From assembly GCA_026397015.1 (NCBI GenBank), contig JAPLVR010000003.1, positions 186,359 to 250,358 of the forward strand: a stretch of DNA of 64,000 nucleotides. Reading direction: 5' to 3'. This document shows positions 2,837 to 21,100 of this stretch, piece by piece (the first letter of the stretch is position 1; each line of letters opens with the position of its first letter). The position numbers and the translations under genes are program-made. The notes under the pieces are model-generated. The model was not told the DNA's origin. It saw only the letters and a list, made by a program, of their open reading frames with translations, and did no database searches. Origin of the DNA: Candidatus Iainarchaeum sp. GTDB taxonomy: Archaea; Iainarchaeota; Iainarchaeia; Iainarchaeales; JAAZKV01.

Positions 2837-3808
2837 TTAATCCCTTTCAATTATTTTGGTTTTAAAGCGGCTTTTCCTTTTTTTCAGCAAAACAATTCTT
2901 GACTCCTTTTTTTCTGATTCATATGCATAGGAAGGCATCTTTTCGAGCAGCTGTTCCGAATATGCTTTCACCTCGGAGTGGGAAGGCATTGCCTCGTACT
3001 TCAGGCGGCGCCTTGAAAAGCCGAGATTCATATACGCTTTAACCTCGATGAAATCGCTTTGAACGGCTTCCAAAACTTCCGCAAATTCGCACAATGTTTC
3101 CTCGGAATAATTCAATTCTTTTATGAGTGTTAGGCGGATAACCGTTCTGCACGGAAGCAGTTTCAGAAGCGCGAGAGATTTCAAATAATTTTTCCAGCCG
3201 TTTTTTTCGGTGTTGCATGTGATTTTTCTGTAAAGCCCTTTATTTGGAGCCGCTATGGAAATGTAAAGCTGGGTCGGGAGGGAATTTTTTTCCCACAACT
3301 GGAAAAGCATTTTTGGGTTTTGGCCGTTTGAAACCAAAAAAACCGTTTCTGTTTTTGGTCTTTTTTTCAAAAGTGAAATCAGCTGGGGAAGTTTTTTGTA
3401 AAGGGTGGGTTCGCCGCTCAAAGAAATCGCCCAGTGTTTTTCCTCCATCGCTTCGTCATATCTTTTTCTTGCAGAAGCGCCGCTGCTTTTGAATCCGCTG
3501 ATAAGAATTTTTCTTTCTTCAATCAACCCTTCAATCATTTTTTCCGGAGAGAGCGGAGAAGGGGGTTTGCCTCGCATATATTCCATCGGGCGCCAGCAAA
3601 AGACACAGGAATTGTTGCACCACAAAGCACTCGGAGTAATCTGGTGGCAGCTGATGCAGTGCGCGCCGTAAAAGTCCTGCTTGTAGCAGTGCCCCTTGCC
3701 CCTGAGCGCTTTCTTGTTCCACTCGCACACCTGAATTGCGGCATCGCCGTTGCCGAAGAAACGGTACTGCTTTTTCCTGAACTCCCTTAAAAGACTTTCC
3801 TTGTTCAT
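2837..3808 (-). CDS. taw1: tRNA 4-demethylwyosine synthase (TYW1/Taw1), radical SAM
   Basis: CxxxCxxC cluster CNNSCVFCWRP, with the TYW1-like organisation including C-terminal EVKAYMNLG...RRRL. The ORF is 323 aa. Confidence 0.8.
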   Translation of the reverse strand: MNKESLLREFRKKQYRFFGNGDAAIQVCEWNKKALRGKGHCYKQDFYGAHCISCHQITPSALWCNNSCVFCWRPMEYMRGKPPSPLSPEKMIEGLIEERKILISGFKSSGASARKRYDEAMEEKHWAISLSGEPTLYKKLPQLISLLKKRPKTETVFLVSNGQNPKMLFQLWEKNSLPTQLYISIAAPNKGLYRKITCNTEKNGWKNYLKSLALLKLLPCRTVIRLTLIKELNYSEETLCEFAEVLEAVQSDFIEVKAYMNLGFSRRRLKYEAMPSHSEVKAYSEQLLEKMPSYAYESEKKESRIVLLKKRKSRFKTKIIERD

Positions 3809-3902
3809 TGAAATTATTGGAGTGAGGAGTTTTTTTAAACAGGAATTTTTTTAAACAAAACAGGCATTACTTCTAACAGCAAATATAAATCTGAGACAAA
3901 GG

Positions 3903-4349
3903 GTGAAAAAAATGGAGGGTTCAATACAATTCATTTCGAATTACGAGGATTGGAAGGCAATAAAAAAAATAAAGATAACAGGGCAAACTAATCCGAGAAC
4001 GGTTGCGGAGTTTCTTGCTGGCCTTTCAACGAGCCTTGATTCGAAAGTAGAATCAAATTTAAGAAAAATAGTCGCGCTCGACAAGCTGGACGCGGCGGTA
4101 AAAGAACTTGCATTCGGAAAAGGGGATTCGGCAAGGGCGCTTGAAGAAATCAATTCGAGAAAAATTTCTGCCGTAATAAACGAAATTATTGAGCTTCCAA
4201 ATTTGCAGGCGAATGAAAAAAAGGAATTGCAGCAATTCTGCAGGGTTTATGCGACAAAAAAGGCCCTGAAAGAATGCGGGCTCATGGTTGATTATTCGGA
4301 AATCGATATTCCCGGAATGAAAAGGCTCAAGAAAAAAAAAGTTGAATAG
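3903..4349 (+). CDS. hypothetical protein (148 aa)
   Basis: Clean ORF divergent from taw1, with no recognisable motif. Confidence 0.45.
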   Translation: MKKMEGSIQFISNYEDWKAIKKIKITGQTNPRTVAEFLAGLSTSLDSKVESNLRKIVALDKLDAAVKELAFGKGDSARALEEINSRKISAVINEIIELPNLQANEKKELQQFCRVYATKKALKECGLMVDYSEIDIPGMKRLKKKKVE

Positions 4350-4485: not shown

Positions 4486-5322
4486 ATGTTCGACGAAATA
4501 ATTGCCAACCAAATTTTGCAGGGATTCATGAGCCCCGCGCTTACCTTATTTTTTCAAATAGTGACTTTCTTCGGCCACCCGATAATTTGGTTCGTTGCGG
4601 CTGCATGGCTTTTCTGGCTCGGAAAGGAAAAAAGAAGCGCAATACTGGTTTCGCTTATCGTGGCGGTCGCAGTAATTTCAACCGGGGTTAAAACGCTGAT
4701 TGCGAGGCCGCGGCCGGCGGGAATTGAAATACTTGAAATGCAGGACACGACCTATTCGATGCCCTCAAGCCACGCCGCAATAGGCGGGGCGATGTACGCG
4801 TTCTTTGAAAAAAAATTGGTCGGAAAATTAAAACCTCTTCAGGCACTCCTTCTCGCGGCAATAATTCTGATAGCGATTTCAAGAATCTATTTGGGCGTCC
4901 ACTTCCTCAGCGACGCAATTGTCGGGCTTTTTTTGGGTTACATCATTGCAAAGGCGGTTCTGATTTACGAAGAAAGAATGGTAAAAATAAATCTGGTAAA
5001 ACTTGTCAAGATGGAATGGCCTTTCCTCCTTTCAATAATTTTCATCGCATCCATTCTTCTGATTCAACTGCTTCCGAGCGCCCTTTACGAGGCACAGACG
5101 CTTCTCGGGTATTATTTTGGTTTTATACTTCACAAACAGGGGCACAAAATATACGACGCAAAAAACAGGCCCCTAATACTTTTAATCGGAACCGCACTTC
5201 TTGCAGCAATCGGCTTTTTCGCGTATGAAATCGGGGGAATAGTCGGCGCTGTGCTATTCTTCACCGCCGGATTATTTGTAACGTTCATCTGGCCGTTTGC
5301 TTACTCAAAGTTGAAGCTTTAA
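4486..5322 (+). CDS. PAP2-family phosphatase (phosphatidic acid / undecaprenyl-PP phosphatase-like), membrane
   Basis: The three PAP2 motifs are present: KTLIARPRP (KxxxxxxRP), PSSH, and SRIYLGVHFLSD (SRxxxxxHxxxD). Multiple TM helices, including an extra C-terminal TM domain. Confidence 0.8.
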   Translation: MFDEIIANQILQGFMSPALTLFFQIVTFFGHPIIWFVAAAWLFWLGKEKRSAILVSLIVAVAVISTGVKTLIARPRPAGIEILEMQDTTYSMPSSHAAIGGAMYAFFEKKLVGKLKPLQALLLAAIILIAISRIYLGVHFLSDAIVGLFLGYIIAKAVLIYEERMVKINLVKLVKMEWPFLLSIIFIASILLIQLLPSALYEAQTLLGYYFGFILHKQGHKIYDAKNRPLILLIGTALLAAIGFFAYEIGGIVGAVLFFTAGLFVTFIWPFAYSKLKL

Positions 5323-5644
5323 CCGGCTTCAAAAGTCAAGGATAAAACTTTAAAAACAAAGCAGCAACTAATTATAGGGTTTTGTCCGCAAAGCGGAGAA
5401 CCAATTGTTTGTGGCAGTTGCATTTGCGAAGTATGCTGCATCGAGCGAAAGCGAAGATGCTGCTCAGATGCCAACTGGCTGCAGCAGTTGCCCCCCTTAG
5501 TTTAGTAGCTTGAACGCTCGGCTGTAGATATAGCCCTTTTCTTTTCGAAAGAAAAGTGCTATCATCCCAAAAGAAATTTTAGGATGCTTTTATTTCAGCG
5601 ATTGCTGATACGAGTAAAAGGAATAGCTACCGAGAGATCCCCGG

Positions 5645-5666
5645 TGCAACTCTGGGAGGGGGGATT
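5645..5666 (+). repeat. island motif copy A (TGCAACTCTGGGAGGGGGGATT) within hairpin ATCCCC...GGGGAT
   Basis: Seen directly. The stem spans 5637-5642 and 5660-5665. Confidence 0.7.
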
Positions 5667-5730
5667 ACACTTATAGTGCAATTCAATCAATTAGCAAAGA
5701 TTTATATTAATTAAAAAATATTGTGTTGAT

Positions 5731-5964
5731 ATGGGACTAAGAAGATTAATACGATTGAAAAAGCTTCAACGCTTGAAGAGGGATCCGGAGCGAAGAGCGC
5801 AACTTGAAGTTGCCCGGGACTTTAGAAGATACTCTAGAATTAATCAGGAACCCAATTCACTTACTGGTGAAAAAGATCCAGGCATGTTACAAATTGCAAG
5901 CAAACAACGAGCAACCGCTAATAGAATTACAGCTGATCTGAAGAAAAAAAGAAAATCTCTGTAA
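5731..5964 (+). CDS. small basic hypothetical protein (77 aa)
   Basis: The ATG is preceded by a TATA-like TTTATATT ~25 nt upstream. The protein is Arg/Lys-rich and first in the same-strand small-gene array. Confidence 0.35.
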   Translation: MGLRRLIRLKKLQRLKRDPERRAQLEVARDFRRYSRINQEPNSLTGEKDPGMLQIASKQRATANRITADLKKKRKSL

Positions 5965-5993
5965 TTTGTTGCTAATCTACAGAATGGCGCTGG

Positions 5994-6018
5994 CTGCGGC
6001 AGTCGAGAAGGGGGAATT
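5994..6018 (+). repeat. island motif copy B, variant (CTGCGGCAGTCGAGAAGGGGGAATT)
   Basis: Lies 30 nt after the stop of 5731..5964. It contains a GGGAATTCCC palindrome. Confidence 0.55.
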
Positions 6019-6161
6019 CCCTTTAGAGGGGCACCACCTAAACTAGTTCGACCACAAACTCTTGTTTTTACTACACACGCCCCTCAACTGCAAAAAACAC
6101 GCAATCTTACTTGTAAGAAATCCTTAAATATTAGTTTGAATACAGTATTAACGGTGATTGG

Positions 6162-6410
6162 ATGCAGCCAATAGTTGAAACAACAAAGATGTCCACAAAA
6201 GGGCAAATAATAATACCTAAAGAAGTAAGGGATTTCACCCAAAGCAAGGAAAATACACTGTTTACAGTAACGCCAGTGAACACTGACACGATTATCCTCA
6301 AAAAATTAAACAGGCAAGAAATGGTGAAAGAATTCCAAAAAATAAGGCAAGAAGTAAAAGGCAAGCTTTCAGAGGATGAAATCAATGACCTCATACACAA
6401 AGTTCGATAG
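6162..6410 (+). CDS. vapB: AbrB/SpoVT-MazE-type antitoxin (VapB-like)
   Basis: N-terminal swapped-hairpin signature MSTKGQIIIPKEVRD, 82 aa. The ORF overlaps the start of the downstream PIN gene. Confidence 0.65.
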   Translation: MQPIVETTKMSTKGQIIIPKEVRDFTQSKENTLFTVTPVNTDTIILKKLNRQEMVKEFQKIRQEVKGKLSEDEINDLIHKVR

Positions 6411-6819
6411 CCGAAAACTCGTCCTAGACACAAACATAATAATTTCAGCGTTAATAGGAAAGCACGGCGAATCGGCAAAACTATTCGAAAAACTAATCCA
6501 GGAAGAAATTGACAACTATACAAGCAAAGAAATCATCCAAGAAATAATTGACGTGCTAAACAGAAAAGAAATAATAAAAAGAACAGCAAAAGAAGCAAGA
6601 ACATTCATCCTAGAACAATACCTCACACACTCAAAAATAGTTGTGCCAAAAGAAAAACACAAAATCACGGCACATGAATCAGACAACAAATTCATTGATA
6701 CGGCAATTGAAGCAAAAGCAAGCTTTATCGTAAGCGGAGACAAACACTTGCTTGAAATAAAAGAATTTAAAGAAATAAAAATAATAAGAGCAAAAGAATA
6801 CTTAGGCAACGGAAAATGA
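6376..6819 (+). CDS. vapC: PIN-domain ribonuclease toxin (VapC-like)
   Basis: Acidic residues at PIN positions (LVLDTNIII...; ...FIDTAIEAKASFIVSGDKHL). Overlaps vapB by ~35 nt. The alternative start is Met at 6385. Confidence 0.7.
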   Translation: MKSMTSYTKFDSRKLVLDTNIIISALIGKHGESAKLFEKLIQEEIDNYTSKEIIQEIIDVLNRKEIIKRTAKEARTFILEQYLTHSKIVVPKEKHKITAHESDNKFIDTAIEAKASFIVSGDKHLLEIKEFKEIKIIRAKEYLGNGK

Positions 6820-6850
6820 AAAGCAAACTGCCAACCAAGAACAACCCGCG

Positions 6851-6868
6851 TGCAACTCTGGGGGGATT
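6851..6868 (+). repeat. island motif copy C (TGCAACTCTGGGGGGATT) followed by ATTTATATAA
   Basis: Lies 32 nt after the vapC stop. Confidence 0.7.
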
Positions 6869-6919
6869 ACATTTATATAATTCAAACGACTTATGCTTAG
6901 ATTGGAGTGGTGATTTTAT

Positions 6920-7216
6920 TTGAATAAAAAATTTGGTTTAAAGTTTTTATTTGATCCGCAGTTTTTATTTGATTTACAGTTTTTAGCACTCAAAATTATA
7001 GGATTGCTGATTGCAACATATTTCATCTCAAACCTTTACTTTACGGCAATCACAAGCACCTTTGCAAATTTGGAATATTTAACTTACTACTGGCCATTTT
7101 TTACTCTGGAAATATTAGCCGCTTTAATAGGGCTGTATTTACTTTTTCGGCAAAAGAAATTCCCGGAAATGAAAATCCCTGAAAAACAAAAAAATGGGAA
7201 TAAGAAAAAGAAATAA
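6920..7216 (+). CDS. small membrane protein (98 aa, TTG start) with FPEMKIPEKQ..KKKK tail
   Basis: Two predicted TM helices. The C-terminal tail is shared with ORF 9559..9801. Confidence 0.4.
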   Translation: MNKKFGLKFLFDPQFLFDLQFLALKIIGLLIATYFISNLYFTAITSTFANLEYLTYYWPFFTLEILAALIGLYLLFRQKKFPEMKIPEKQKNGNKKKK

Positions 7217-7235
7217 ATATGCGGAACGGCCCCGA

Positions 7236-7259
7236 CTGCAGCAATCGGGGAGGGGATTT
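7236..7259 (+). repeat. island motif copy D, variant (CTGCAGCAATCGGGGAGGGGATTT) in hairpin CCCCGA...TCGGGG
   Basis: Lies 20 nt after the stop of 6920..7216. A TATA-like TTTTTATAC follows. Confidence 0.65.
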
Positions 7260-7290
7260 ATTTTTATACAATTCTTTGTTTGATTTAGTC

Positions 7291-8388
7291 ATGAATAAAT
7301 CAATGCGAGATGCTACGACTGAGCCTATTCTGGATTATTCCAAGTTGCTGCGCCCCGCCAACTTTATCGGGGCTTCTCAGGAGGGGATTATTTCTTTTGG
7401 TTCGGGCCAACCTGACCTTGCTCCGCCGCAGGAAGTTTTTTCCGGCTTAGGGTTGCACAGGACATTCAAATACGGGCCTGTTGCCGGGCAGGACACATTA
7501 AGGGAAGCGCTTGCGAAAGAAAACCCCTTGTTTAGCAAAGAGCATTTTGTTATAACTAACGGGTCTTCGGAAGCGCTGGATATTATTTTTCGCGTACTTG
7601 CAAAACCAAAAGACAAAATACTGATACACACGCCATACTACTATTCGTACAAACCATTACTAGAGCTAAACAATTTTGAACCCGTATTAGTAAATACCGT
7701 CAAGGGGAAAATTGATATGGGGGATTTTAGAAAAAAAGTTGTGGGGGTCAAGGCTGTGTTGATTAATTCTCCGAGCAATCCTACCGGCGTGATTCAAGAA
7801 ATCAGTGCGCTTAAAGAAATTGAAAAAATAACAAAAGACCTCGATATCCCTCTGGTGTCTGATGAAGTGTATAAGGACTTGATTTATGAGAGAGAAAATT
7901 ATTCTCTTTCAGGGCCGCACGTGATTACGGTGAATTCATTCTCAAAAACATTCAACCTGTGCGGTTTGCGCGTAGGGTACTTATTCTCCAATGACTTGGG
8001 CATAGTAAACAAAGTGATTAATTTCAAGTCCCATAGCTCAATGAACACTTCAATTCTTTCCCAAGAGATGGCAGTGAAAGCGCTTAGTGTTCCGAAAAAG
8101 TTTATACGGGACCAGGTCAAGATTTGGAAGAGCAGAAGGGATTTGATATACGAGGGGCTAACTGAAATGGGCCTTGATTTGTGGAAACCGGAAGGCGCAT
8201 TTTATGTTTTCCCAAAAATCGACAACCCCGAAAAATTCGTGTATGAGATGCATAAATACCACAAGGTTATCACTTACCCCGGAACCTGGTTTGGAGACAA
8301 CGAACGGGTAAGATTTTCTTACGCTCTTAACGCAAACAAAATTGAGGAAGGACTAGAGCGAGTGAGAAAGTACTTACACCGCCCATAA
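7291..8388 (+). CDS. class I/II PLP-dependent aminotransferase
   Basis: PLP-lysine motif NSFSKTFNLCGLRVGY, about 365 aa. The tool start at 7219 would translate island motif D, so the start was moved to ATG 7291 (MNKSMRD). Confidence 0.8.
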   Translation: MNKSMRDATTEPILDYSKLLRPANFIGASQEGIISFGSGQPDLAPPQEVFSGLGLHRTFKYGPVAGQDTLREALAKENPLFSKEHFVITNGSSEALDIIFRVLAKPKDKILIHTPYYYSYKPLLELNNFEPVLVNTVKGKIDMGDFRKKVVGVKAVLINSPSNPTGVIQEISALKEIEKITKDLDIPLVSDEVYKDLIYERENYSLSGPHVITVNSFSKTFNLCGLRVGYLFSNDLGIVNKVINFKSHSSMNTSILSQEMAVKALSVPKKFIRDQVKIWKSRRDLIYEGLTEMGLDLWKPEGAFYVFPKIDNPEKFVYEMHKYHKVITYPGTWFGDNERVRFSYALNANKIEEGLERVRKYLHRP

Positions 8389-8400
8389 TTCTGGCACCGT

Positions 8401-8420
8401 AGCAACTCTGGAGGGGGATT
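8401..8420 (+). repeat. island motif copy E (AGCAACTCTGGAGGGGGATT) followed by T7
   Basis: Lies 13 nt after the aminotransferase stop. A further hairpin follows at 8434-8455. Confidence 0.7.
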
Positions 8421-8525
8421 TTTTTCTTATTACTGCACCGCCTTTAGGCAGTGCATATGTGTCGGTGCCAGCGGACGAAACCGCCGAACGATATGTTTAA
8501 ATTCTGTAATTTACAGAATTTGTGC

Positions 8526-8888
8526 ATGACAAAGACTCGTATAAGAACGCTTTCCAAAGAGGTAATAATTAACATAAACAAGAAATTCTCTGATGGAATA
8601 ATGCGAAATGAGGGGGAAATAGACCACGTAGTGTACAAAGTTGCCGGTACCAGAGGGATAGATAGAAAAGCCGCTACATTGCTAATGGACATTGCAAGAA
8701 AGCATGCTTTCACTGACGGAAATAAAAGAACCGCTTATGAATCAATGCTTACATTACTTGAACTGAATGGAAAAAAACTTGAAGTTGGAGAAACATCGAG
8801 ATTTAATGTTGTTGTTTGGGTAGTAAAACCGAAAACAAATTTAGAGGAAATAATTACGTGGATAGCAAACCACACAAGGGGTAACTAA
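8526..8888 (+). CDS. doc: Doc (death-on-curing) / Fic-family toxin
   Basis: Doc motif HAFTDGNKRTA (HxFx[DN]GNKR). The start was moved to ATG 8526, because the tool's GTG 8451 start would translate motif E and a hairpin. Confidence 0.7.
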   Translation: MTKTRIRTLSKEVIININKKFSDGIMRNEGEIDHVVYKVAGTRGIDRKAATLLMDIARKHAFTDGNKRTAYESMLTLLELNGKKLEVGETSRFNVVVWVVKPKTNLEEIITWIANHTRGN

Positions 8889-8889
8889 A

Positions 8890-9018
8890 ATGAAAGTAAT
8901 AAAAGTCAAAGGAAAAAGAGAACCAATAACAATGGCTGAATGGAGTGACGTTAAAGAAATGGTTGAAAGACACCTAAAAGAAAACAAAACATTCTACGCA
9001 CAACTAGCTGAATTATAA
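8890..9018 (+). CDS. small ORF (42 aa) downstream of doc, possible cognate antitoxin
   Basis: ATG 2 nt after the doc stop, encoding MKVIKVKGKREPITMAEWSDVKEMVERHLKENKTFYAQLAEL. Below the ORF-track size cutoff. Its position is atypical, since Phd normally precedes Doc. Confidence 0.3.
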   Translation: MKVIKVKGKREPITMAEWSDVKEMVERHLKENKTFYAQLAEL

Positions 9019-9062
9019 TTGTGACAAGCAACAGTTTTGACCGTAATCTTGAGCGCCCCGTG

Positions 9063-9080
9063 TGCAACTCTAGGGGCATT
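9063..9080 (+). repeat. island motif copy F (TGCAACTCTAGGGGCATT) in hairpin GCCCC...GGGGC followed by T-run
   Basis: Stem arms at 9055-9059 and 9073-9077. It lies 45 nt after the small ORF 8890..9018. Confidence 0.7.
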
Positions 9081-9141
9081 CCTTTTTTCTGGTTTAGCTG
9101 CAAACAAAACTAATTTATTGCTTAGCTTGTAAAATTAGGTA

Positions 9142-9552
9142 ATGAAAATAACCTTGTGCTCGAGCTACAGATTCTTTGACAAATTATACGCAATAAAAAA
9201 GGCGCTGGAAGAAAGGGGTTACGAAGTGTTTTTACCGAGCATGCGTGATTACCATCACCTTGAAGAAACCGCTCTCGCAAAAATACAATACAACCTAATC
9301 AAAAACCATTTCAGAAAAGTTGACAAGTCTGATGCAATCTATGTGGCGAATTATGACAAGGACGGCGTAAAAGGTTACATAGGAGGAAACTCCTTCCTTG
9401 AGATGGGAAAGGCTTTTGACAAAGGAATTCCAATATTCCTCATGAATGAGATCCCAACCCAATCGCCATACAGAGAAGAATTAATCGCGCTCATGCCGAT
9501 AGTAATCGGCGAAGACTGGGATCTAATGAATAAATTGCTTAAAAAAAGGTGA
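9142..9552 (+). CDS. nucleoside 2-deoxyribosyltransferase-like protein (NDT/Rcl fold)
   Basis: The motif GGNSFLEMGKAFDKGIPIF matches the NDT catalytic-Glu motif (xGTxFExGxAxxxGKPV). The 136-aa size is typical. Confidence 0.55.
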   Translation: MKITLCSSYRFFDKLYAIKKALEERGYEVFLPSMRDYHHLEETALAKIQYNLIKNHFRKVDKSDAIYVANYDKDGVKGYIGGNSFLEMGKAFDKGIPIFLMNEIPTQSPYREELIALMPIVIGEDWDLMNKLLKKR

Positions 9553-11732: not shown

Positions 11733-13982
11733 TTGAAAAGGTTTCTTGGAATAGTTTTATTGGTCGCAGTAATTATTTTATTTTCAGGGTGCATCCAACC
11801 GCCAGTATGCGGAAACGAAAGATGTGAAATAGGAGAGAACCAAGACAACTGTTCAGCGGATTGCTCGTCACAATCGCCGCCTTCGGTGCAGATCTTTGAG
11901 CCGGAAATCAACGGTCTTGTTGTGACCCAAAACGGCGTTGCACAGCCTAACTGTGGAAGCTTTGACGAAACATACTGCGCAAACTATTCCGCTGGCCCAG
12001 ACCAAAATGGAACAATATTCAACGGGCCCATTGCATTTGAATGGGGCGACGGAAGTGTTTCATGTTCCTGGTTCCCTGCGGAACATCAATATGCACAAGC
12101 CGGTGAGTATACAATAAGCGTAAGTGCAAAAAATACCTGTACCGAAACGATCGGCGGCGCAACCAGAATTGTGCGAATAAGTTCAGGTTCTTGCGGAAAT
12201 TCAATATGCGAAGCAGAAGAAACGCCTCAAACATGTTCCGATGATTGTAGCATAATTTCTCCGGGAGTTTACGAGCTAAATATCGGGGACAAAATATTTG
12301 TTGAAGGAGGCGGAAATTTTGCAGGCGAAATACTGTCAATAACATTTATTGATGTGGTTCAGCCGGGAACGGGCCCAAACATGCCCTACCAAGGGAAATG
12401 GACACTAAAAAACAACTACACATTACTAAAAATTGTCCAAAAAGCGCCGGGCACTTACTTAAACGACGAATTCGGATCAAATTATTTTAACCGCAATCCG
12501 AAAATATACGTTGAAGAGGTTGCGTTTAATCTGCAAACCGAAAAATATTTCGCAAAAGTGAGGATAACAAGCGGAATAGAAATAAGGACTGACCAAGTGT
12601 TCCCGTACGATCCGGCGCAAACAACAAATCCAGAATGGACTGGGCACGCGAACACTGTTTTGGAAGGAAATAAAGTCAAACTTCTCTCAATTGAAATAAT
12701 GAATAATTGGTCATATGACCAACCAACAAACGAGAGTTCGACACAGAAAATCGTCCTCGCAAAAAACCAATCAATAAAACTCCCTTTGGATTATGGGCAC
12801 ATAACTTACGAAGGCCTTCAAGGGGAAAACCCTGAAGTAACCGAAACAATTGGCGGAAACACATTAAAAATAACTGATACTTTTGGAATCCAAAGAGAAG
12901 TTCCATTAGTAATCCAGCTGGGATTCGGTCTTAACGAGATAATGATTTCAGGAACCCCATTTGTTGTTTATCTCGCTAAGCTTGAAAACACTGAAAAGGA
13001 TGTTGCCAGGTACTGGCCTTACTCTAGAACTGCCGCGGCAATTCCCGACCCATGGAAAAACCCTCCGGCAGGTTACAATGACATCTCATATTCAAACAAA
13101 AGCGTAACAAAAACAACCCTAAGCTTCTGGGTAAATACAACCAGCATGTCGCCAAAATATGCCCTAGGGGTTGACAAAACAACCGGGCAGGCATGGCTTT
13201 TACTGTCCAGCCAGTCATTCCGCGTTAAATCTGCAAGCAGAAGCGGCATTCTTGAGGTCGGAAGCACCTGCATCCCATCAGCCACGCCGGACCAAAGGCC
13301 GTATTACCTGCCGGATTTAACCACGTTAAATGTTCTTACCGGGGCCGGCTATTCAATAATGCCGTCTGATGGGGATTCTTACGAATTCACTTCAAAAATG
13401 ACACTCAAGGATTATGACAATCCGCAGGGAGTAGATTTTTATCTCGGGACGTCGGATGATTTGCTCGTAAACAGCACAAATAATAAAGCAAGGTGCAGCA
13501 CGGCGGACAATGAGGCGGAATATATTCATTGGAACCTAAATGAATACACAACCGCGGCATCCACAAAGCTGCTGCAGGGATACACTACTTACGGCACAAA
13601 GGTAACGGTCAGCGAGGGAATTGGAAAAGCATACGTTCCGCTTTACACAAAGGTCATGGCGCACACAACTGTAAACATTTCCAACCCAATTGAATTATTC
13701 CTGAGAAACAAAATACAGGATTCAAATCAATTCATTTGGGATATAAGCTCCAATGATGTGTACAGCGAAAAAATAATGCTTGAGGCAACCGCGAGAAATC
13801 AGACAATCGCAAACGGCTTTTATCCGGGCGAGGTTGTTTTGTCAATAGGAAAAAATGGAATAGAATACTACGTCACATTCAACCAGCCTGCCGATATCGG
13901 CACCGAAATAAATTTCATGGGCAAAAATTATAGGATTGCGGAAATCGGATTAGGGCGCGTATTCCTTGAAGAAGTGCAATAA
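11733..13982 (+). CDS. secreted lipoprotein with PKD domain and two CGxxxCExGE..C..DC modules
   Basis: TTG start. The signal peptide ends in the lipobox-like LFSGC. The PKD signature is FEWGDGSVSC...HQYAQAGEYTISVSAKN. The Cys modules are CGNERCEIGENQDNCSADCS and CGNSICEAEETPQTCSDDCS. Confidence 0.7.
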   Translation: MKRFLGIVLLVAVIILFSGCIQPPVCGNERCEIGENQDNCSADCSSQSPPSVQIFEPEINGLVVTQNGVAQPNCGSFDETYCANYSAGPDQNGTIFNGPIAFEWGDGSVSCSWFPAEHQYAQAGEYTISVSAKNTCTETIGGATRIVRISSGSCGNSICEAEETPQTCSDDCSIISPGVYELNIGDKIFVEGGGNFAGEILSITFIDVVQPGTGPNMPYQGKWTLKNNYTLLKIVQKAPGTYLNDEFGSNYFNRNPKIYVEEVAFNLQTEKYFAKVRITSGIEIRTDQVFPYDPAQTTNPEWTGHANTVLEGNKVKLLSIEIMNNWSYDQPTNESSTQKIVLAKNQSIKLPLDYGHITYEGLQGENPEVTETIGGNTLKITDTFGIQREVPLVIQLGFGLNEIMISGTPFVVYLAKLENTEKDVARYWPYSRTAAAIPDPWKNPPAGYNDISYSNKSVTKTTLSFWVNTTSMSPKYALGVDKTTGQAWLLLSSQSFRVKSASRSGILEVGSTCIPSATPDQRPYYLPDLTTLNVLTGAGYSIMPSDGDSYEFTSKMTLKDYDNPQGVDFYLGTSDDLLVNSTNNKARCSTADNEAEYIHWNLNEYTTAASTKLLQGYTTYGTKVTVSEGIGKAYVPLYTKVMAHTTVNISNPIELFLRNKIQDSNQFIWDISSNDVYSEKIMLEATARNQTIANGFYPGEVVLSIGKNGIEYYVTFNQPADIGTEINFMGKNYRIAEIGLGRVFLEEVQ

Positions 13983-17939: not shown

Positions 17940-17962
17940 CAGCCTTTTTCTCAAAAAGGCTG
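17940..17962 (+). terminator. palindromic hairpin element CAGCCTTTTT-CTC-AAAAAGGCTG abutting tRNA-Asp 5' end
   Basis: 10-bp stem. An extra free right-arm copy AAAAAGGCTG lies at 17904-17913. Confidence 0.45.
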
Positions 17963-18033
17963 CCCCGATAGTCTATTGGTTAGGATTCACCCCTGTCACG
18001 GGTGAGAGCCGGGTCCGAATCCCGGTCGGGGCG
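17962..18033 (+). tRNA. tRNA-Asp (anticodon GTC)
   Basis: Folded by hand: 7-bp acceptor stem GCCCCGA/TCGGGGC, D-arm GTCT/GGAT, anticodon stem CACCC/GGGTG with loop CTGTCAC, T-arm CCGGG/CCCGG with loop TCCGAAT, and discriminator G. No encoded CCA. TTTT follows. Confidence 0.85.
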
Positions 18034-18146
18034 TTTTGGGCGAAAGGCCTATCTATTAACAGTGTATATTTTAACAATAAAAAAAAGAAAAAGCAAAACC
18101 TTTAAATACAACCTCGATACACAAAATAATATTGGTTGCGATTTCG

Positions 18147-21100
18147 ATGCGAAGACAAGTTTTGTTCTTATTTATGATTCTTCTTTCGGCGACTGTTTTT
18201 GCGGACTACTGTGTTAACAGGACTGGACCCGGTTATCTTGTGGGTTGCGGTGTGCTAGGAGTACAAAGCGGGTTTTCAACCTGCATTTATAACACCGACG
18301 CCGCCATGACTAAAATTAAGACTGTATTGAATTATACTGGACCGAACTGCGGAGTAAGAGTTACTTGTTACAATATTGGCAGTGGCGCTAGTGCTGGTCT
18401 GCAAGTTTGTGCGGGATATGATACTGGTTGTTATGCGCCAGGCGCAGGGTCGTGCGTTTGCAGCCCGAATAGCCAATTTGCCCCTGAAACATGTTCAAAT
18501 GGTTTTACCTATAAAACTTGTAACGGTAATGGTGACGGTTATTCACAGGCGAACTGCCAGCGGATTGGCGGTAACTGCAGCGGTGGAGACATATTTTATA
18601 CATCCAGGCTTAACACATCCTGCCCCCCAATAAACGGGCAATGTGTTCAAGACGTTTATGGCGCCCTAAATGGCCTGGGATACTGGGAACAATCCTCAGG
18701 GGCAAGGGCTTACTGCGATACTGTGAATTATCATGGCCTTCAGGTGGCACAGGCATGCGTTAAAACAGATGGTTCATGTATCCCAAAGGTCTGTACAGCG
18801 AATGCGTATGAGACGAGGGTGTGCACCAACAACAAGGGATTCCAATGGAGACAATGCAACGGATCTGGAACAGGATACAACGCCGACTGGTCAGCCTGCA
18901 TAACCATCCCGGGAGGAAACTGCACCACAACAACCGGCGACCAATTCTACACACTAAGAGCAAACACCACCTGCACCCAATCAGGACTAGCAGACGGATC
19001 ATCATGCAGCCAAAACTACACTAACCAATTAAACTCACTAGGATACAGCGGACCATACACAGGAACAAGAGTGTATTGTGAAAGCGGGTCATATGCAGGT
19101 TTTACAGCGGGAGAGGTGTGCGTAAAAACAGATGCAGCCTGCAACCCACCAATCTGCACAGCAAACGCATACGAAGCAAAAGTATGCGCCAACAACAAAG
19201 GATTCCAATACAGAAAATGCAACGCAAACGGAACAGGATACGAACCAGACTGGCAACCATGCACAGCACTGCCTGGAGGGGATTGTAAAACAATAACCGG
19301 GGATTTATTTTATACATCAAGACTGGAAGGCAAAAACTGCTCCCAATACGGGTTCGCAGGACAGACTGGATACTCGGCATGCGTACAAAGCATTAACAGA
19401 AGTGTTTTGGACGCAGTAGGATATACGGGACCATACATCGGAGCAAGAGCATACTGCGACGATGAAACATACCAAGGCGCAACTGCAGCAGAAGCATGCG
19501 TAAAAACAGATTCTTCTTGCGGAGCACCGTGCACAGTGGGGCAAATAGAAGCACAAACCTGTGACAATGACAATGGATACAAGTACAGAACATGCAACTC
19601 AACAGGAACGGCATGGAACGACTGGACCACATGCGCACCGCTACCAGGAACAAACTGCGGAGCAGGAACAACCAAAATATTCTACAAAGCATTCCTCAAC
19701 AAAACATGTGCGGAAGTCGCCCAGGGAAGAACAAATGTCTGTATACAAGACGTATTCCAAATAGCGTGGAATAATGGGTACAGGGGCCTGGCAACGGGGG
19801 CAAAGGTATATTGTGATGATTACAGGACATCAAGCTTATACGGGGCAGGATTCTGCGTAAAGGTGGCTACGGAATGCGACCAGTCAGTCTGCACACCCGG
19901 AAAATACGAGGCAAGGGAATGCATAAACAAGAGGGCGGATACCAAAATGCCAAGCGGATATCAATACAGGCAATGCAACACAACAGGGCAAGCATGGGGC
20001 GACTGGTCAACATGCGCACCAATACCGGGAATAAACTGCGGAACCGGAATCACAAAAATATTCTACTACCCGAAACTCAACGTTACGTGTGCAGGGGTCG
20101 GGATACCGACAAGCGGACTATGCATACAAACAGTACTCCAACAAGCAAAAGCACTCGGATACACCGGACCAGAAACAGGCGCAAGAGCATATTGTGATAA
20201 TTACAGAACCGAAGATATATTCGGTGCGGGAGCATGCGTAAGAACGGACACAGGCTGCAATACCGGCTGCATATGCACCGACCAATACGACCCTGTTTGC
20301 GGAACAGACGGAAAAACTTATCCTAATGAATGCGCCGCGAGATGCGCGAAAATAGCGGTCGCGTATGAAGGCGAATGCAAAGAAAACTGCGCAAAGGAAG
20401 GGGAAGGAATCTGCAACACATGCACACCGGGAAGCGGACCAACGGAATGCTGCACCGGGCTGACAAAAATAACGCCCGCAAGTAAGCTAAATGATGATTG
20501 CACTTTGAAAAATATAGTCGGCGGACAATCATCAGTCTGCACCCATTGTGGAGACGACATTTGCGGAACCGGAGAAAACAAATGCAACTGTCCACAGGAT
20601 TGCAATCCCATTAAATGCGAAACAAGTAAAGATTGTTTAAGGGGTTGCATAGGGCCGAAAGCGACTTACGGTTCCTGCACGAACGGGCAATGTGTATATA
20701 CTAGATGTGAAACGGATGGCAGTGGCATTGACAGATGTGCTGCAGACACCGCACCGCCAACGTGCGACAAAAGATGCGACGCGGACTGCGAAACCAACGC
20801 GGACTGCATGGTTACTTGCGCCCAAAATTTATGCGCGATTGGCGAAACCAATTGTGCAGAATGCCCTGAATACACCTGCAACAGAGAATCCTGCGAGTGT
20901 GAGCCGGTAGTAGTACCTGTACCGCGGTTTAATTTGACAGTGCATACTGGCTGGAATATTTTCTCGATACCCGGAGCATTGAGCCTACTGAGCAATAATT
21001 GCGATTCAAGCAGATTTAGAATTTACGAATACACCCCCTCTTCAATACCTTGGTTTGTTCCTGTAAGCAACGTTGAAATAGGAAAGGCATATTTACTATA

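Follow-up and report, generated by a model that had tools for sequence, protein, structure and literature searches.

What is the short motif that recurs on one strand between the small genes at 5.6-9.1 kb of the 64-kb stretch of Candidatus Iainarchaeum DNA analyzed here (the window), and how did these genes come to be strung together? The initial annotation had read them as a cassette-like array and had placed motif copies at 5645, 5994, 6851, 7236, 8401 and 9063. All six positions were recovered, as copy 1 at 5644-5666 (GTGCAACTCTGGGAGGGGGGATT), further copies at 6850-6868 (GTGCAACTCTGGGGGGATT), 8400-8420 (TAGCAACTCTGGAGGGGGATT) and 9062-9080 (GTGCAACTCTAGGGGCATT), and diverged variants at 5994-6018 (CTGCGGCAGTCGAGAAGGGGGAATT) and 7236-7258 (CTGCAGCAATCGGGGAGGGGATT), which are direct repeats, present only on the + strand and restricted to 5.6-9.1 kb. 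An 18-mer search allowing up to three mismatches gave 2 matches against 0.01 expected, and a repeat search sorted the copies into families D4, D8, D12 and D13. A profile HMM trained solely on junctions from other genomes produced five matches in the window, all on the + strand and within 5628-9071, with no match elsewhere in the 64 kb. It missed the 5994 variant, whose sole support is a close match to the site at the equivalent, last array position in a relative (L002:13180, GGCAGTCGGGGAGGGGGGATT), and this position is less firmly confirmed than the others. The window copies are degenerate, with a shortened G-run and changed bases, and two of them are strongly diverged. The short GC stems in which they were said to be embedded are of ordinary stability (z of -0.7 to +0.5 against shuffled sequences).

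A tRNA-Tyr 3' end as the source of the motif

With introns allowed, ARAGORN calls an unannotated tRNA-Tyr(gta) gene, i(38,101), at 5491-5664 (+), comprising exon 1 (5491-5527; positions 1-37, starting with C1), a 101-nt intron at the canonical 37/38 position (5528-5628) and exon 2 (5629-5664; positions 38-73). The spliced tRNA is a 73-nt cloverleaf with C1-G72 and A73, and all four cloverleaf arms also form in the unconstrained minimum free energy fold of 5491-5664. C1-G72 and A73 are archaeal tyrosine tRNA identity elements. The same tRNA is called by ARAGORN in the related loci L002, L005 and L006, giving introns of 101-115 nt with the window included; those of the relatives (104-115 nt) lie at the same site and share a hairpin (TCAGCGATTGCTGA) followed by TACGAG. 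Exon 2 is identical or one base different in these three and about 10 other loci. Motif copy 1 (5644-5666) spans the T-loop, the 3' T-stem, the 3' acceptor strand, A73 and TT, and this block, the att core, recurs in the cassette-side copies, both within the window and at more than 20 loci. The motif is thus the last ~23 nt of an intron-containing tRNA-Tyr(GUA) gene, which the initial annotation had overlooked, and the other copies are partial direct duplicates of it. That the motif follows each gene accordingly holds for the cassette-side copies but not for copy 1, which ends the tRNA gene and has no protein gene before it. [quoted passage not shown]

Upstream of the tRNA gene lies a TATA-like box that may serve as its promoter (TAAAACTTTAAAAA, 5343-5356, +); the same box (AAACTTTAAAAA) precedes the tRNA in L002, L005 and L006. 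The leader also carries an inserted imperfect hairpin of ~95 nt (5396-5490, +; -35.8 kcal/mol and z of -2.77 for 5400-5500), which has no second copy within the window and is absent from relatives, the homology of L006 and L005 skipping across it from about 5400 to 5491.

Modules behind the tRNA gene

The array is flanked on the left by a PAP2 phosphatase gene (4486-5322, +; Pfam PAP2, 9.2e-21), a homologue of which (37-92% identity) lies 5' of tRNA-Tyr in 13 loci, and on the right by a 136-aa nucleoside deoxyribosyltransferase-like gene (9142-9552, +), which marks where the variable array stops distally, an 81% identical protein being encoded 3' of the last att copy in L002. Between them are five + strand modules of 350-1165 bp, far below the usual size of an integrative element, and the cassettes have, as read from the sequence, their own TATA boxes. 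The earlier calls of vapB-vapC, an aminotransferase and doc were upheld by Pfam (VapB-like/PIN, class I/II aminotransferase and Fic/Doc).

Module 1 (5667-6018) encodes a 77-aa basic protein (5731-5964) for which the Pfam scan gave no match, and ends in the variant at 5994-6018. Module 2 (6019-6868) contains the VapB-like gene (6162-6410; a weak MazE-like match) and the PIN/VapC gene (6376-6819; PIN_3, 3.9e-20) and ends in the copy at 6850-6868 (junction profile match at 6824-6887, E 4.9e-9); homologous VapBC cassettes are found directly 3' of the tRNA in L028 and 3' of the distal att copy of an element in L022. Module 3 (6869-7258) encodes a 98-aa membrane protein (6920-7216) and ends in the variant at 7236-7258 (profile match at 7209-7271, E 0.023), and module 4 (7259-8420) carries the aminotransferase gene (7291-8388; Aminotran_1_2, 4.2e-56) and ends in the copy at 8400-8420 (profile match at 8402-8432). 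Module 5 (8421-9080) pairs the Doc/Fic toxin (8526-8888; Fic, 3.1e-7) with a 42-aa partner (8890-9018), a homologue of which in L016 stops 30 nt short of an att copy, and ends in the copy at 9062-9080 (profile match at 9035-9071).

Module presence and absence in relatives

The PAP2-tRNA-Tyr locus is kept in relatives (Iainarchaeota, DPANN). L006, which is 92% identical by its PAP2 protein, lacks four of the window's modules, module 1 included: it is collinear with the window to 5666 and picks up again at 8487, with a single hybrid site, such that the Doc module alone sits directly 3' of the tRNA. The window therefore carries an additional 2.8 kb with its borders exactly at the motif copies at 5644 and 8400, the latter (the end of module 4) being the right border. 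These breakpoints inside motif copies support the earlier claim of a cassette-like array with a conserved, recombination-site-like boundary, and the comparison of relatives for modules bounded at the motif, which had been proposed as a check, revealed further population variants that switch cassettes exactly at the core. For example, L013 and L030 are 100% identical over tRNA-A-B-core and diverge directly 3' of GGGGGGATT, whereas L019 and L030 differ 5' of a core and are 97% identical 3' of the same core.

A Xer-like integrase beside the same tRNA gene in relatives

The initial annotation saw no integrase in the window, and this was borne out by a Pfam scan of 30 window ORFs (including all but four of those above 200 aa), in which none was an integrase, and by tblastn with the relatives' integrase, which found nothing significant in the whole window or in L001, the 5.5 kb upstream. 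A tyrosine recombinase near the motif does occur in relatives. Homologues start 57-119 nt 3' of the tRNA-Tyr end in L005, L010 and L032, and the integrase gene (Phage_integrase, 9.7e-20) abuts an att site in four loci. Complete elements of 7.9 kb and 9.7 kb each end in a distal att copy, and the larger encodes a D5-like primase-helicase. The element of L022 is inserted at a non-tRNA att copy within an array, from which it appears that such copies are also used for insertion. Cassette presence and absence is thus bounded at the core, and an integrase lies beside the same tRNA in relatives.

We consider it highly probable that the locus is a tRNA-anchored integration hotspot, whose att sites are copies of the tRNA-Tyr 3' end and whose cassettes lack an integrase. 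In Iainarchaeota, a Xer-like tyrosine integrase borne on integrative elements of 8-10 kb would recombine DNA carrying a copy of the tRNA 3' end into the chromosomal tRNA-Tyr gene, presumably acting on the att core with strand exchange in or near the T-loop, and each insertion would restore the tRNA and add one partial copy downstream. The window would then be an integrase-free island of five stacked modules, with the tRNA as its left border and the copy at 9062 as its right border. Because no integrase lies nearby, its somewhat decayed copies are probably now largely inactive. The failure to find an integrase in the window and upstream weighs against the hotspot reading, recombinase activity in this genome being only putative, and so do the degenerate state of the window copies and the small size of the modules. 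The same indels could alternatively stem from homologous recombination of the RadA type acting on the repeats.

Mobility of single-gene cassettes

In other relatives, an array can have as many as 10 junction repeats. We counted 46 small modules (median 660 bp) in 23 arrays; 53 of their ORFs share the strand of the tRNA and 1 is on the opposite strand, and they encode toxin-antitoxins (HicAB, PemK, HigB-like), Fic, GNAT and NUDIX proteins and lipoproteins. The junction is regular, ~100 bp long, and consists of a CA-rich arm, the core and a downstream arm. It is possible, although we lean against it, that these modules are mobile cassettes, in each of which one gene comes with a promoter of its own and one ~100-bp junction, and that the Xer-like integrase would excise, capture and reshuffle them individually in trans, with tRNA-Tyr as an attI-like entry site; this reading extends the hotspot explanation and does not replace it. 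It is favored by the strand uniformity, by small cassettes free of integrase fragments, by cargo like that of chromosomal integrons, by the recurrence of both arms around cores beside unrelated cargo, by the combinatorial cassette orders of Saanich Inlet variants (B-D-C, B-Z and Y-Z-C), by VapBC cassettes at differing array positions in three genomes, and by a cassette-exact duplication of HicB within one array of L028 (copies 95% identical). However, neither excised circles nor empty sites were seen, the downstream arm beside integrase genes differs from those of cassettes, the window combines decayed cores with the lack of an integrase, and tRNA-proximal insertion followed by homologous-recombination deletions between junction repeats could give the same patterns.

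Alternatively, the modules may be debris of full-size elements stripped of their integrase and most genes, with no mobility at the cassette level. Such a history is usually assumed for integrated elements that lack an integrase and for dispersed partial tRNA copies (10.1101/2020.12.28.424599; PMC8371274) and agrees with the decayed cores of the window, but we judge it improbable here. Nearly all module ORFs share one strand and a module is mostly one compact, intact gene, whereas the two integrase-bearing elements are mixed-strand (10 and 12 ORFs, versus 53 and 1); junctions are regular, the L028 duplication is cassette-exact, and the loci contain no replication-gene fragments and no integrase sequences besides intact or contig-truncated genes. 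Given this lack of integrase fragments and the small size of the window modules, plain decay of full-size elements is not their obvious origin.

RNA-level signals and integrons

On another reading, which takes in the alternative given in the initial annotation (a terminator, operator or RNA-processing site), the repeats would be a local terminator, an operator or a tRNA-like processing signal punctuating a polycistronic transcript, with the indels due to incidental homologous recombination between them. The copies do lie 13-45 nt 3' of stop codons, are followed by T-rich or TATA-like sequence and retain some of the T-arm hairpin, with 4 conserved pairs, but they lack the 5' acceptor strand, have no conserved structure above 4 bp, form hairpins no stabler than shuffles and have no Rfam match. 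Such a signal accounts neither for the indel borders nor for the four integrase-abutted loci, the bounded 8-10 kb elements and the restriction to a single locus, and we regard it as very improbable. A classical integron, or a CALIN (an attC cluster without integrase) as in archaeal MAGs, would match the small, co-oriented, toxin-antitoxin-rich cassettes less than 4 kb apart, and integrons do exist in archaea (PMC9668308, which mentions neither Iainarchaeota nor tRNA), but this is already effectively refuted: the suggested attC/VCR-like site is absent, since neither strand of 5300-9300 contains a RYYYAAC...GTTRRRY pair with 40-150 nt spacing, against about 1 in shuffles, as the failure to see an R''/R' pair by eye had indicated, and 31 junctions share no conserved fold (consensus -1.3 kcal/mol on one strand, nothing on the other), while with the integron-integrase model TIGR02249 (cut-off 265 bits) the relatives' integrase reaches 55 bits, over its N-terminal half only.

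Comparison with known systems

The locus resembles integrons and CALINs (PMC9668308) in its one-directional, small, mostly single-gene cassettes between conserved recombination sites, its toxin-antitoxin-rich cargo with GNAT and NUDIX, its use of a tyrosine recombinase and the cassette differences between close strains. It is integron-like in appearance, but both site and enzyme are of another type: a tRNA 3' end conserved in sequence takes the place of a folded single-strand attC, cassettes bring their own promoters, the recombinase is by its sequence Xer-like and not IntI, and the integrase, when present, belongs to a replicating element and is found downstream of the entry site.

Closer parallels are archaeal tRNA-targeting elements with non-suicidal (classical) tyrosine integrases, such as PYG1 of Pyrococcus yayanosii (reviewed in PMC8371274), which likewise lie between an intact tRNA gene and a partial direct copy of its 3' part, have an integrase gene adjoining the att site, can integrate in tandem at a single tRNA and use intron-containing tRNA genes. 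The passages of that review covered here do not mention Iainarchaeota/DPANN or a tRNA-Tyr target. The present arrays differ in having up to 10 junction repeats after one tRNA and mostly 0.4-1.3 kb, single-gene, integrase-less units on the tRNA strand only. Tycheposon islands of Prochlorococcus (10.1101/2020.12.28.424599) are similarly tRNA-anchored, with newcomers pushing older elements inward, scattered partial tRNA copies and cargo reshaped by a tyrosine recombinase. However, tycheposons are kb-scale elements equipped with modules for integration and replication, and fragmented integrases occur in their islands, unlike the regular string of mini-cassettes with a ~100-bp conserved junction and no integrase debris in an archaeal host. 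CIMEs (cis-mobilizable elements), known from ICE accretion-mobilization in Streptococcus (PMC5704250), are also integrase-less, att-flanked units, arranged in tandem with an element that has the same att site and does encode an integrase. No conjugation machinery was found among the element ORFs scanned, and CIMEs are few, kb-scale deletion derivatives of ICEs, whereas the units here are gene-sized, uniformly oriented and arranged in long series.

tRNA-Tyr as the origin of the repeat

Relatives of the window, traced via the upstream PAP2 gene (4486-5322), revealed conserved blocks in the apparently empty stretch of 320 nt that separates PAP2 from the first motif copy; as RNA, the blocks make up a tRNA. 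In its intron mode, ARAGORN places a tRNA-Tyr(GUA) at window 5491-5664, interrupted at the canonical position 37/38 by a 101-nt intron, and finds the same gene in three other genomes (L002, L005 and L006) with introns of 107-115 nt; altogether the gene is conserved in more than 10 loci. The spliced tRNA is a cloverleaf of 73 nt with C1-G72 and A73, which are identity elements of archaeal tRNA-Tyr, and an unconstrained minimum free energy fold of the 174-nt precursor shows each of the four arms. L002 carries a C-to-U change in the anticodon stem, where pairing is retained as G-U. The gene was not called by default ARAGORN, and Rfam (whole window at gathering thresholds, 5200-9300 at E<=10) returned only tRNA-Asp and chance matches; both overlooked it because of its long intron. 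Two unusual features are kept in all relatives, namely a T-loop (UGCAACU) with G, not U, at position 55 and a D-loop lacking the usual GG (AGUAGCUU).

The first motif copy (5644-5666, + strand; GTGCAACTCTGGGAGGGGGGATT) is therefore made up of the T-loop TGCAACT, the 3' T-stem CTGGG, the 3' acceptor strand AGGGGGG, the discriminator A and two T's. Judged by sequence, the downstream copies at 6850-6868 (GTGCAACTCTGGGGGGATT), 8400-8420 (TAGCAACTCTGGAGGGGGATT) and 9062-9080 (GTGCAACTCTAGGGGCATT), together with two diverged variants at 5994-6018 and 7236-7258, all likewise on the + strand, are partial direct duplicates of this tRNA-Tyr 3' end. The motif 18-mer with up to three mismatches gave 2 matches against 0.01 expected, and a repeat search also clustered the copies together. 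A profile HMM built exclusively from junctions of other genomes had five matches in the 64-kb window, all on the + strand and all within 5628-9071, with zero in the rest of the window.

Further structures surround the gene and its copies. An intron hairpin (TCAGCGATTGCTGA, then TACGAG; window 5592-5612) is common to the window, L002, L005, L006 and L010, whose introns otherwise differ; this hairpin may serve in splicing or as a guide RNA. Between a conserved TATA box and the tRNA 5' end lies an imperfect hairpin of ~95 nt (5396-5492; -35.8 kcal/mol, z -2.77), which is absent in L005 and L006, has no second copy in the window and holds in its 3' arm CTGGCTGCAGCAGT, similar to the att variant at 5990; the hairpin may be a small piece inserted into the leader of the tRNA. 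At 8391-8474, a perfect inverted repeat of 9 bp (CTGGCACCG / CGGTGCCAG) encloses the copy at 8400 and an inner hairpin (fold of 8380-8480, z -2.26); it was not seen at the other copies.

Organization and cargo of the arrays

TYW1, a split RNA polymerase B, aEF1A and RtcB mark the window as archaeal chromosome, and the array in it comprises 6 sites inside 3.4 kb with every gene on the + strand. The five modules encode a 77-aa basic protein, a VapB-like protein with a PIN protein, a 98-aa membrane protein, a class I/II aminotransferase (an exact look-up gave no match) and Doc with a 42-aa ORF. Read from the sequence, each module has its own putative TATA-like box on the + strand (~5701, 6122, 6872, 7260 and 8495), whose 3' end lies ~23-40 nt before the start codon.

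A scan of public collections for the 21-nt core yielded 25 loci; Candidatus Iainarchaeum and unclassified archaeal MAGs account for nearly all of them, and many are multi-copy. Lone matches in L015 and L029 (a Myxococcales MAG), which had no array context, were regarded as chance. Across 23 arrays all 72 profile matches fall on the tRNA strand, and the 46 small modules measure 76-2512 bp (median 660). Their ORFs of at least 60 aa lie on the tRNA strand in 53 of 54 cases and opposite in one, compared with 10 on the tRNA strand and 12 on the other in the two integrase-bearing elements. A junction runs from the stop codon through a T-rich stretch, a CA-rich arm of ~40 nt, CCCCGYGT, the core GCAAYTCTGGGAGGGGGGATT, a downstream arm and a TATA box to the next start codon; downstream arms recur (e.g., CCCAATAGGGAAGACCAACTGAGCAGAA or TTCCAAAAAAATCACACCGAGCAGAGAATAGAA). 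The conserved 'ATGAAC...' upstream arm was considered as peptide-coding and rejected because the differing ATG-to-core distance (39 vs 35 nt) breaks the reading frame. A distinct att class is preceded by CGCCTAG(T/G)GGAAC(C)TGGCAG(G/A)CCT in place of the CA-rich arm (L022 1100-1160; L008 ~2640-2691; last copy of L019 and L030); it is the final copy on the available contig in L008, L019 and L030 and the insertion point of the integrase element in L022.

The cargo includes VapBC, HicAB, PemK, a HigB-like toxin, Fic, GNAT, NUDIX and many lipoprotein-like proteins. Many cassettes outside the window have in common only a lipoprotein-type signal peptide.

Evidence for recombination at the core in related genomes

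The closest comparison is L006, whose PAP2 protein is 92% identical: it is collinear with the window to 5666, resumes at 8487 and has a single hybrid site with the tRNA on its left and the flank of window copy 8400 on its right. The window therefore holds four extra modules (2.8 kb) whose borders fall exactly at motif copies, and its array has changed after the split from L006. In L002 (71%), other modules (TPR, a 310-aa Fic), each ended by a motif copy, lie between the same tRNA and the homologue of the deoxyribosyltransferase-like gene at window 9142-9552. The Saanich Inlet loci show the same at finer scale, L013 and L030 being 100% identical across 1817 nt (tRNA-A-B-core) and diverging directly after GGGGGGATT, and L019 and L030 being different before a core and 97% identical past it.

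An integrase gene stands beside the same tRNA in relatives. In L005 (69%) a gene for a 416-aa tyrosine recombinase begins 57 nt past the tRNA, and L010 and L032 have homologues (47-51% identity) in the same place, so that the start lies 57-119 nt past tRNA-Tyr in these three loci; in L022 it lies at an internal att copy. There, a 9.7-kb element with the integrase and a D5-like primase-helicase has att copies at both borders and sits at a non-tRNA att copy within the array, with a HicAB cassette upstream. Contig JABHJM010000075.1 reads PAP2, tRNA-Tyr, a 7.9-kb integrase element and eight small modules, with ten junction repeats altogether, so that att-flanked units lacking an integrase stand in tandem with an integrase element using the same att; L012 and L022 are similar. 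The D5-like primase-helicase is the one feature that would point to a viral or plasmid nature of the elements, and viral contigs contained neither the att core (two patterns) nor a relative of the integrase.

The best profile for the relatives' integrase is XerA (87-110 bits, cut-off 220), and the nearest solved structures are Xer-type recombinases. Against the integron integrase model TIGR02249 it scores 47.6-54.7 bits (cut-off 265), covering profile positions 25-177 of 315 only. By these comparisons the enzyme appears Xer-like and not an IntI. None of the 30 window ORFs scanned against Pfam is an integrase, tblastn of the window and its source contig (L001) with the relatives' integrase found nothing, and no integrase lies in the 5.5 kb of that contig upstream of the window, in agreement with the initial annotation, which had seen none in the window.

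Probable integration at the tRNA-Tyr gene

The array shows defining features of a tRNA-anchored integration island: an intact tRNA at its border, distal partial repeats and presence/absence breakpoints inside the repeat. The best-supported account has three steps: a Xer-like tyrosine integrase carried on small replicating elements would recombine the chromosomal tRNA-Tyr gene with the copy of its 3' end that these elements carry; integration would rebuild the tRNA and leave a partial copy at the far end; and successive events would pile up units downstream of the tRNA. This follows the rule that, after integration, one tRNA copy is complete and the other partial (PMC9897764). The two halves of the T-stem around the 7-nt T-loop resemble core-type inverted repeats flanking an overlap region, and we infer that strand exchange is located at the T-loop/T-stem. 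As its cores are shortened or mutated and no integrase lies nearby, the window array is probably old and largely static.

Closest to it are archaeal elements integrated in tandem (PMC8371274), the tycheposon-remodelled tRNA islands of Prochlorococcus (10.1101/2020.12.28.424599) and the CIME/accretion structures of streptococci. Compared with these three, the Iainarchaeota arrays alone form a long regular series of gene-sized units, which are strictly co-oriented, have a putative promoter each and are joined by a junction conserved over ~100 bp. A CIME derives from an autonomous element by internal deletion and shares its end sequences; here the upstream CA-rich arm is common to cassettes and the integrase element's distal end (JABHJM_9291), cassette downstream arms are unlike the integrase-side arm, and no gene remnants are shared. 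Our literature search did not find such arrays described in DPANN archaea.

This account gives a puzzling repeat a concrete mechanism, the copies being att scars of a tRNA gene which standard tRNA-finding tools do not detect. At a single conserved locus, PAP2-tRNA-Tyr, an entire archaeal phylum with tiny genomes maintains a variable array of toxin-antitoxin, acetyltransferase, NUDIX and lipoprotein genes. To our knowledge, mobile elements in DPANN archaea have barely been described. With one integrase, a 23-nt core and natural population variants, the system is open to direct test.

Mobility of individual cassettes

We tentatively propose, at somewhat short of an even chance, that Iainarchaeota possess a convergent analogue of integrons, a chromosomal gene-capture platform with tRNA-Tyr as the entry site and a Xer-like integrase from a small replicating element. 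Single-gene, self-promoted cassettes with a ~100-bp double-stranded, tRNA-3'-derived att junction would each be inserted, excised, duplicated and shuffled singly, and the window would be an older, integrase-less array. The strand bias of the small modules argues for such mobility, as does the lack of debris: the small cassettes contain no integrase fragments. Adjacencies are combinatorial. Homologues of the window VapBC cassette stand right after the tRNA in L028 and past the element's distal att in L022. Duplication can be cassette-exact: in L028 a cassette of HicB and HicA (the latter with an in-frame stop) occurs at 1873-2507 and 3524-4151 with 95% identity, cassette-exact ends and a Fic cassette between. 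However, no excised form was seen, and several of these patterns could also arise by homologous recombination between junctions.

Alternatively, the small modules could result from insertion next to the tRNA followed by deletion. Strand bias, absence of debris, adjacencies and duplication weigh toward mobility instead. If the cassettes are individually mobile, they would constitute a new class of gene-capture platform and offer a way to follow horizontal gene flow among DPANN archaea; the arrays look like a second, independent path to integron-like gene capture, via ordinary double-stranded tRNA att sites.

Comparison with integrons

The initial annotation had proposed, from the sequence, an integron-like cassette array with the motif as an attC/VCR-like site. 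Its placement of the motif and its gene descriptions agree with the positions and gene calls obtained here. The cassette architecture also holds, modules having been gained or lost between related genomes with breakpoints inside the repeat (window vs L006; L013/L030/L019), and a recombination role of the motif is supported by core-exact cassette switches and by the integrase beside the same tRNA. The attC identity and the integron assignment have to be corrected: the motif is the tRNA-Tyr 3' end, its first reported copy lying inside the tRNA gene, and the integrase is of a tRNA-targeting, apparently Xer-like kind.

Co-oriented cassettes with at least two recombination sites less than 4 kb apart are what the window array shares with integrons. 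An attC site has inverse cores RYYYAAC (R'') and GTTRRRY (R') 55-141 nt apart in an imperfect hairpin, and a canonical-core pattern search of both strands of 5300-9300 found zero R''...R' pairs against ~1 in shuffles. Integron cassettes are mostly promoterless and served by a common Pc promoter, whereas the window modules each have a putative TATA box, and the integron integrase has an IntI-specific extra domain, whereas the enzyme of the relatives scores far below the IntI model. Lacking an R''/R' pair and a conserved hairpin, with own TATA boxes and an integrase below both the IntI and XerA cut-offs, the array is not an integron. Neither Iainarchaeota nor tRNA is mentioned in the paper on archaeal integrons (PMC9668308).

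A structured-RNA or attC-like reading of the repeat was dropped because the short GC stems and junctions were no more stable than shuffles and a consensus fold (alifold) across 31 junctions gave no structure on either strand. Tandem duplication of one paralogous family was ruled out for the window array because its cargo genes are unrelated.

Other features of the region

On the source contig, before the window start and ~9 kb upstream of the tRNA, there is a weak match to a gene for a LAGLIDADG-type endonuclease (L001 1127-1894). Downstream of the island in L002, a tRNA-Asp (20529-20708) is predicted by ARAGORN with introns allowed to contain a 105-nt intron and the tRNA-Asp of the window (17961-18034) is intron-free, so that tRNA intron content seems to vary within the lineage. 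A variable spot without the motif at its borders encodes a 749-aa secreted-looking protein (window 11733-13982), which L002 lacks; in this otherwise syntenic stretch of L002, homology passes from 11662 straight to 14013.
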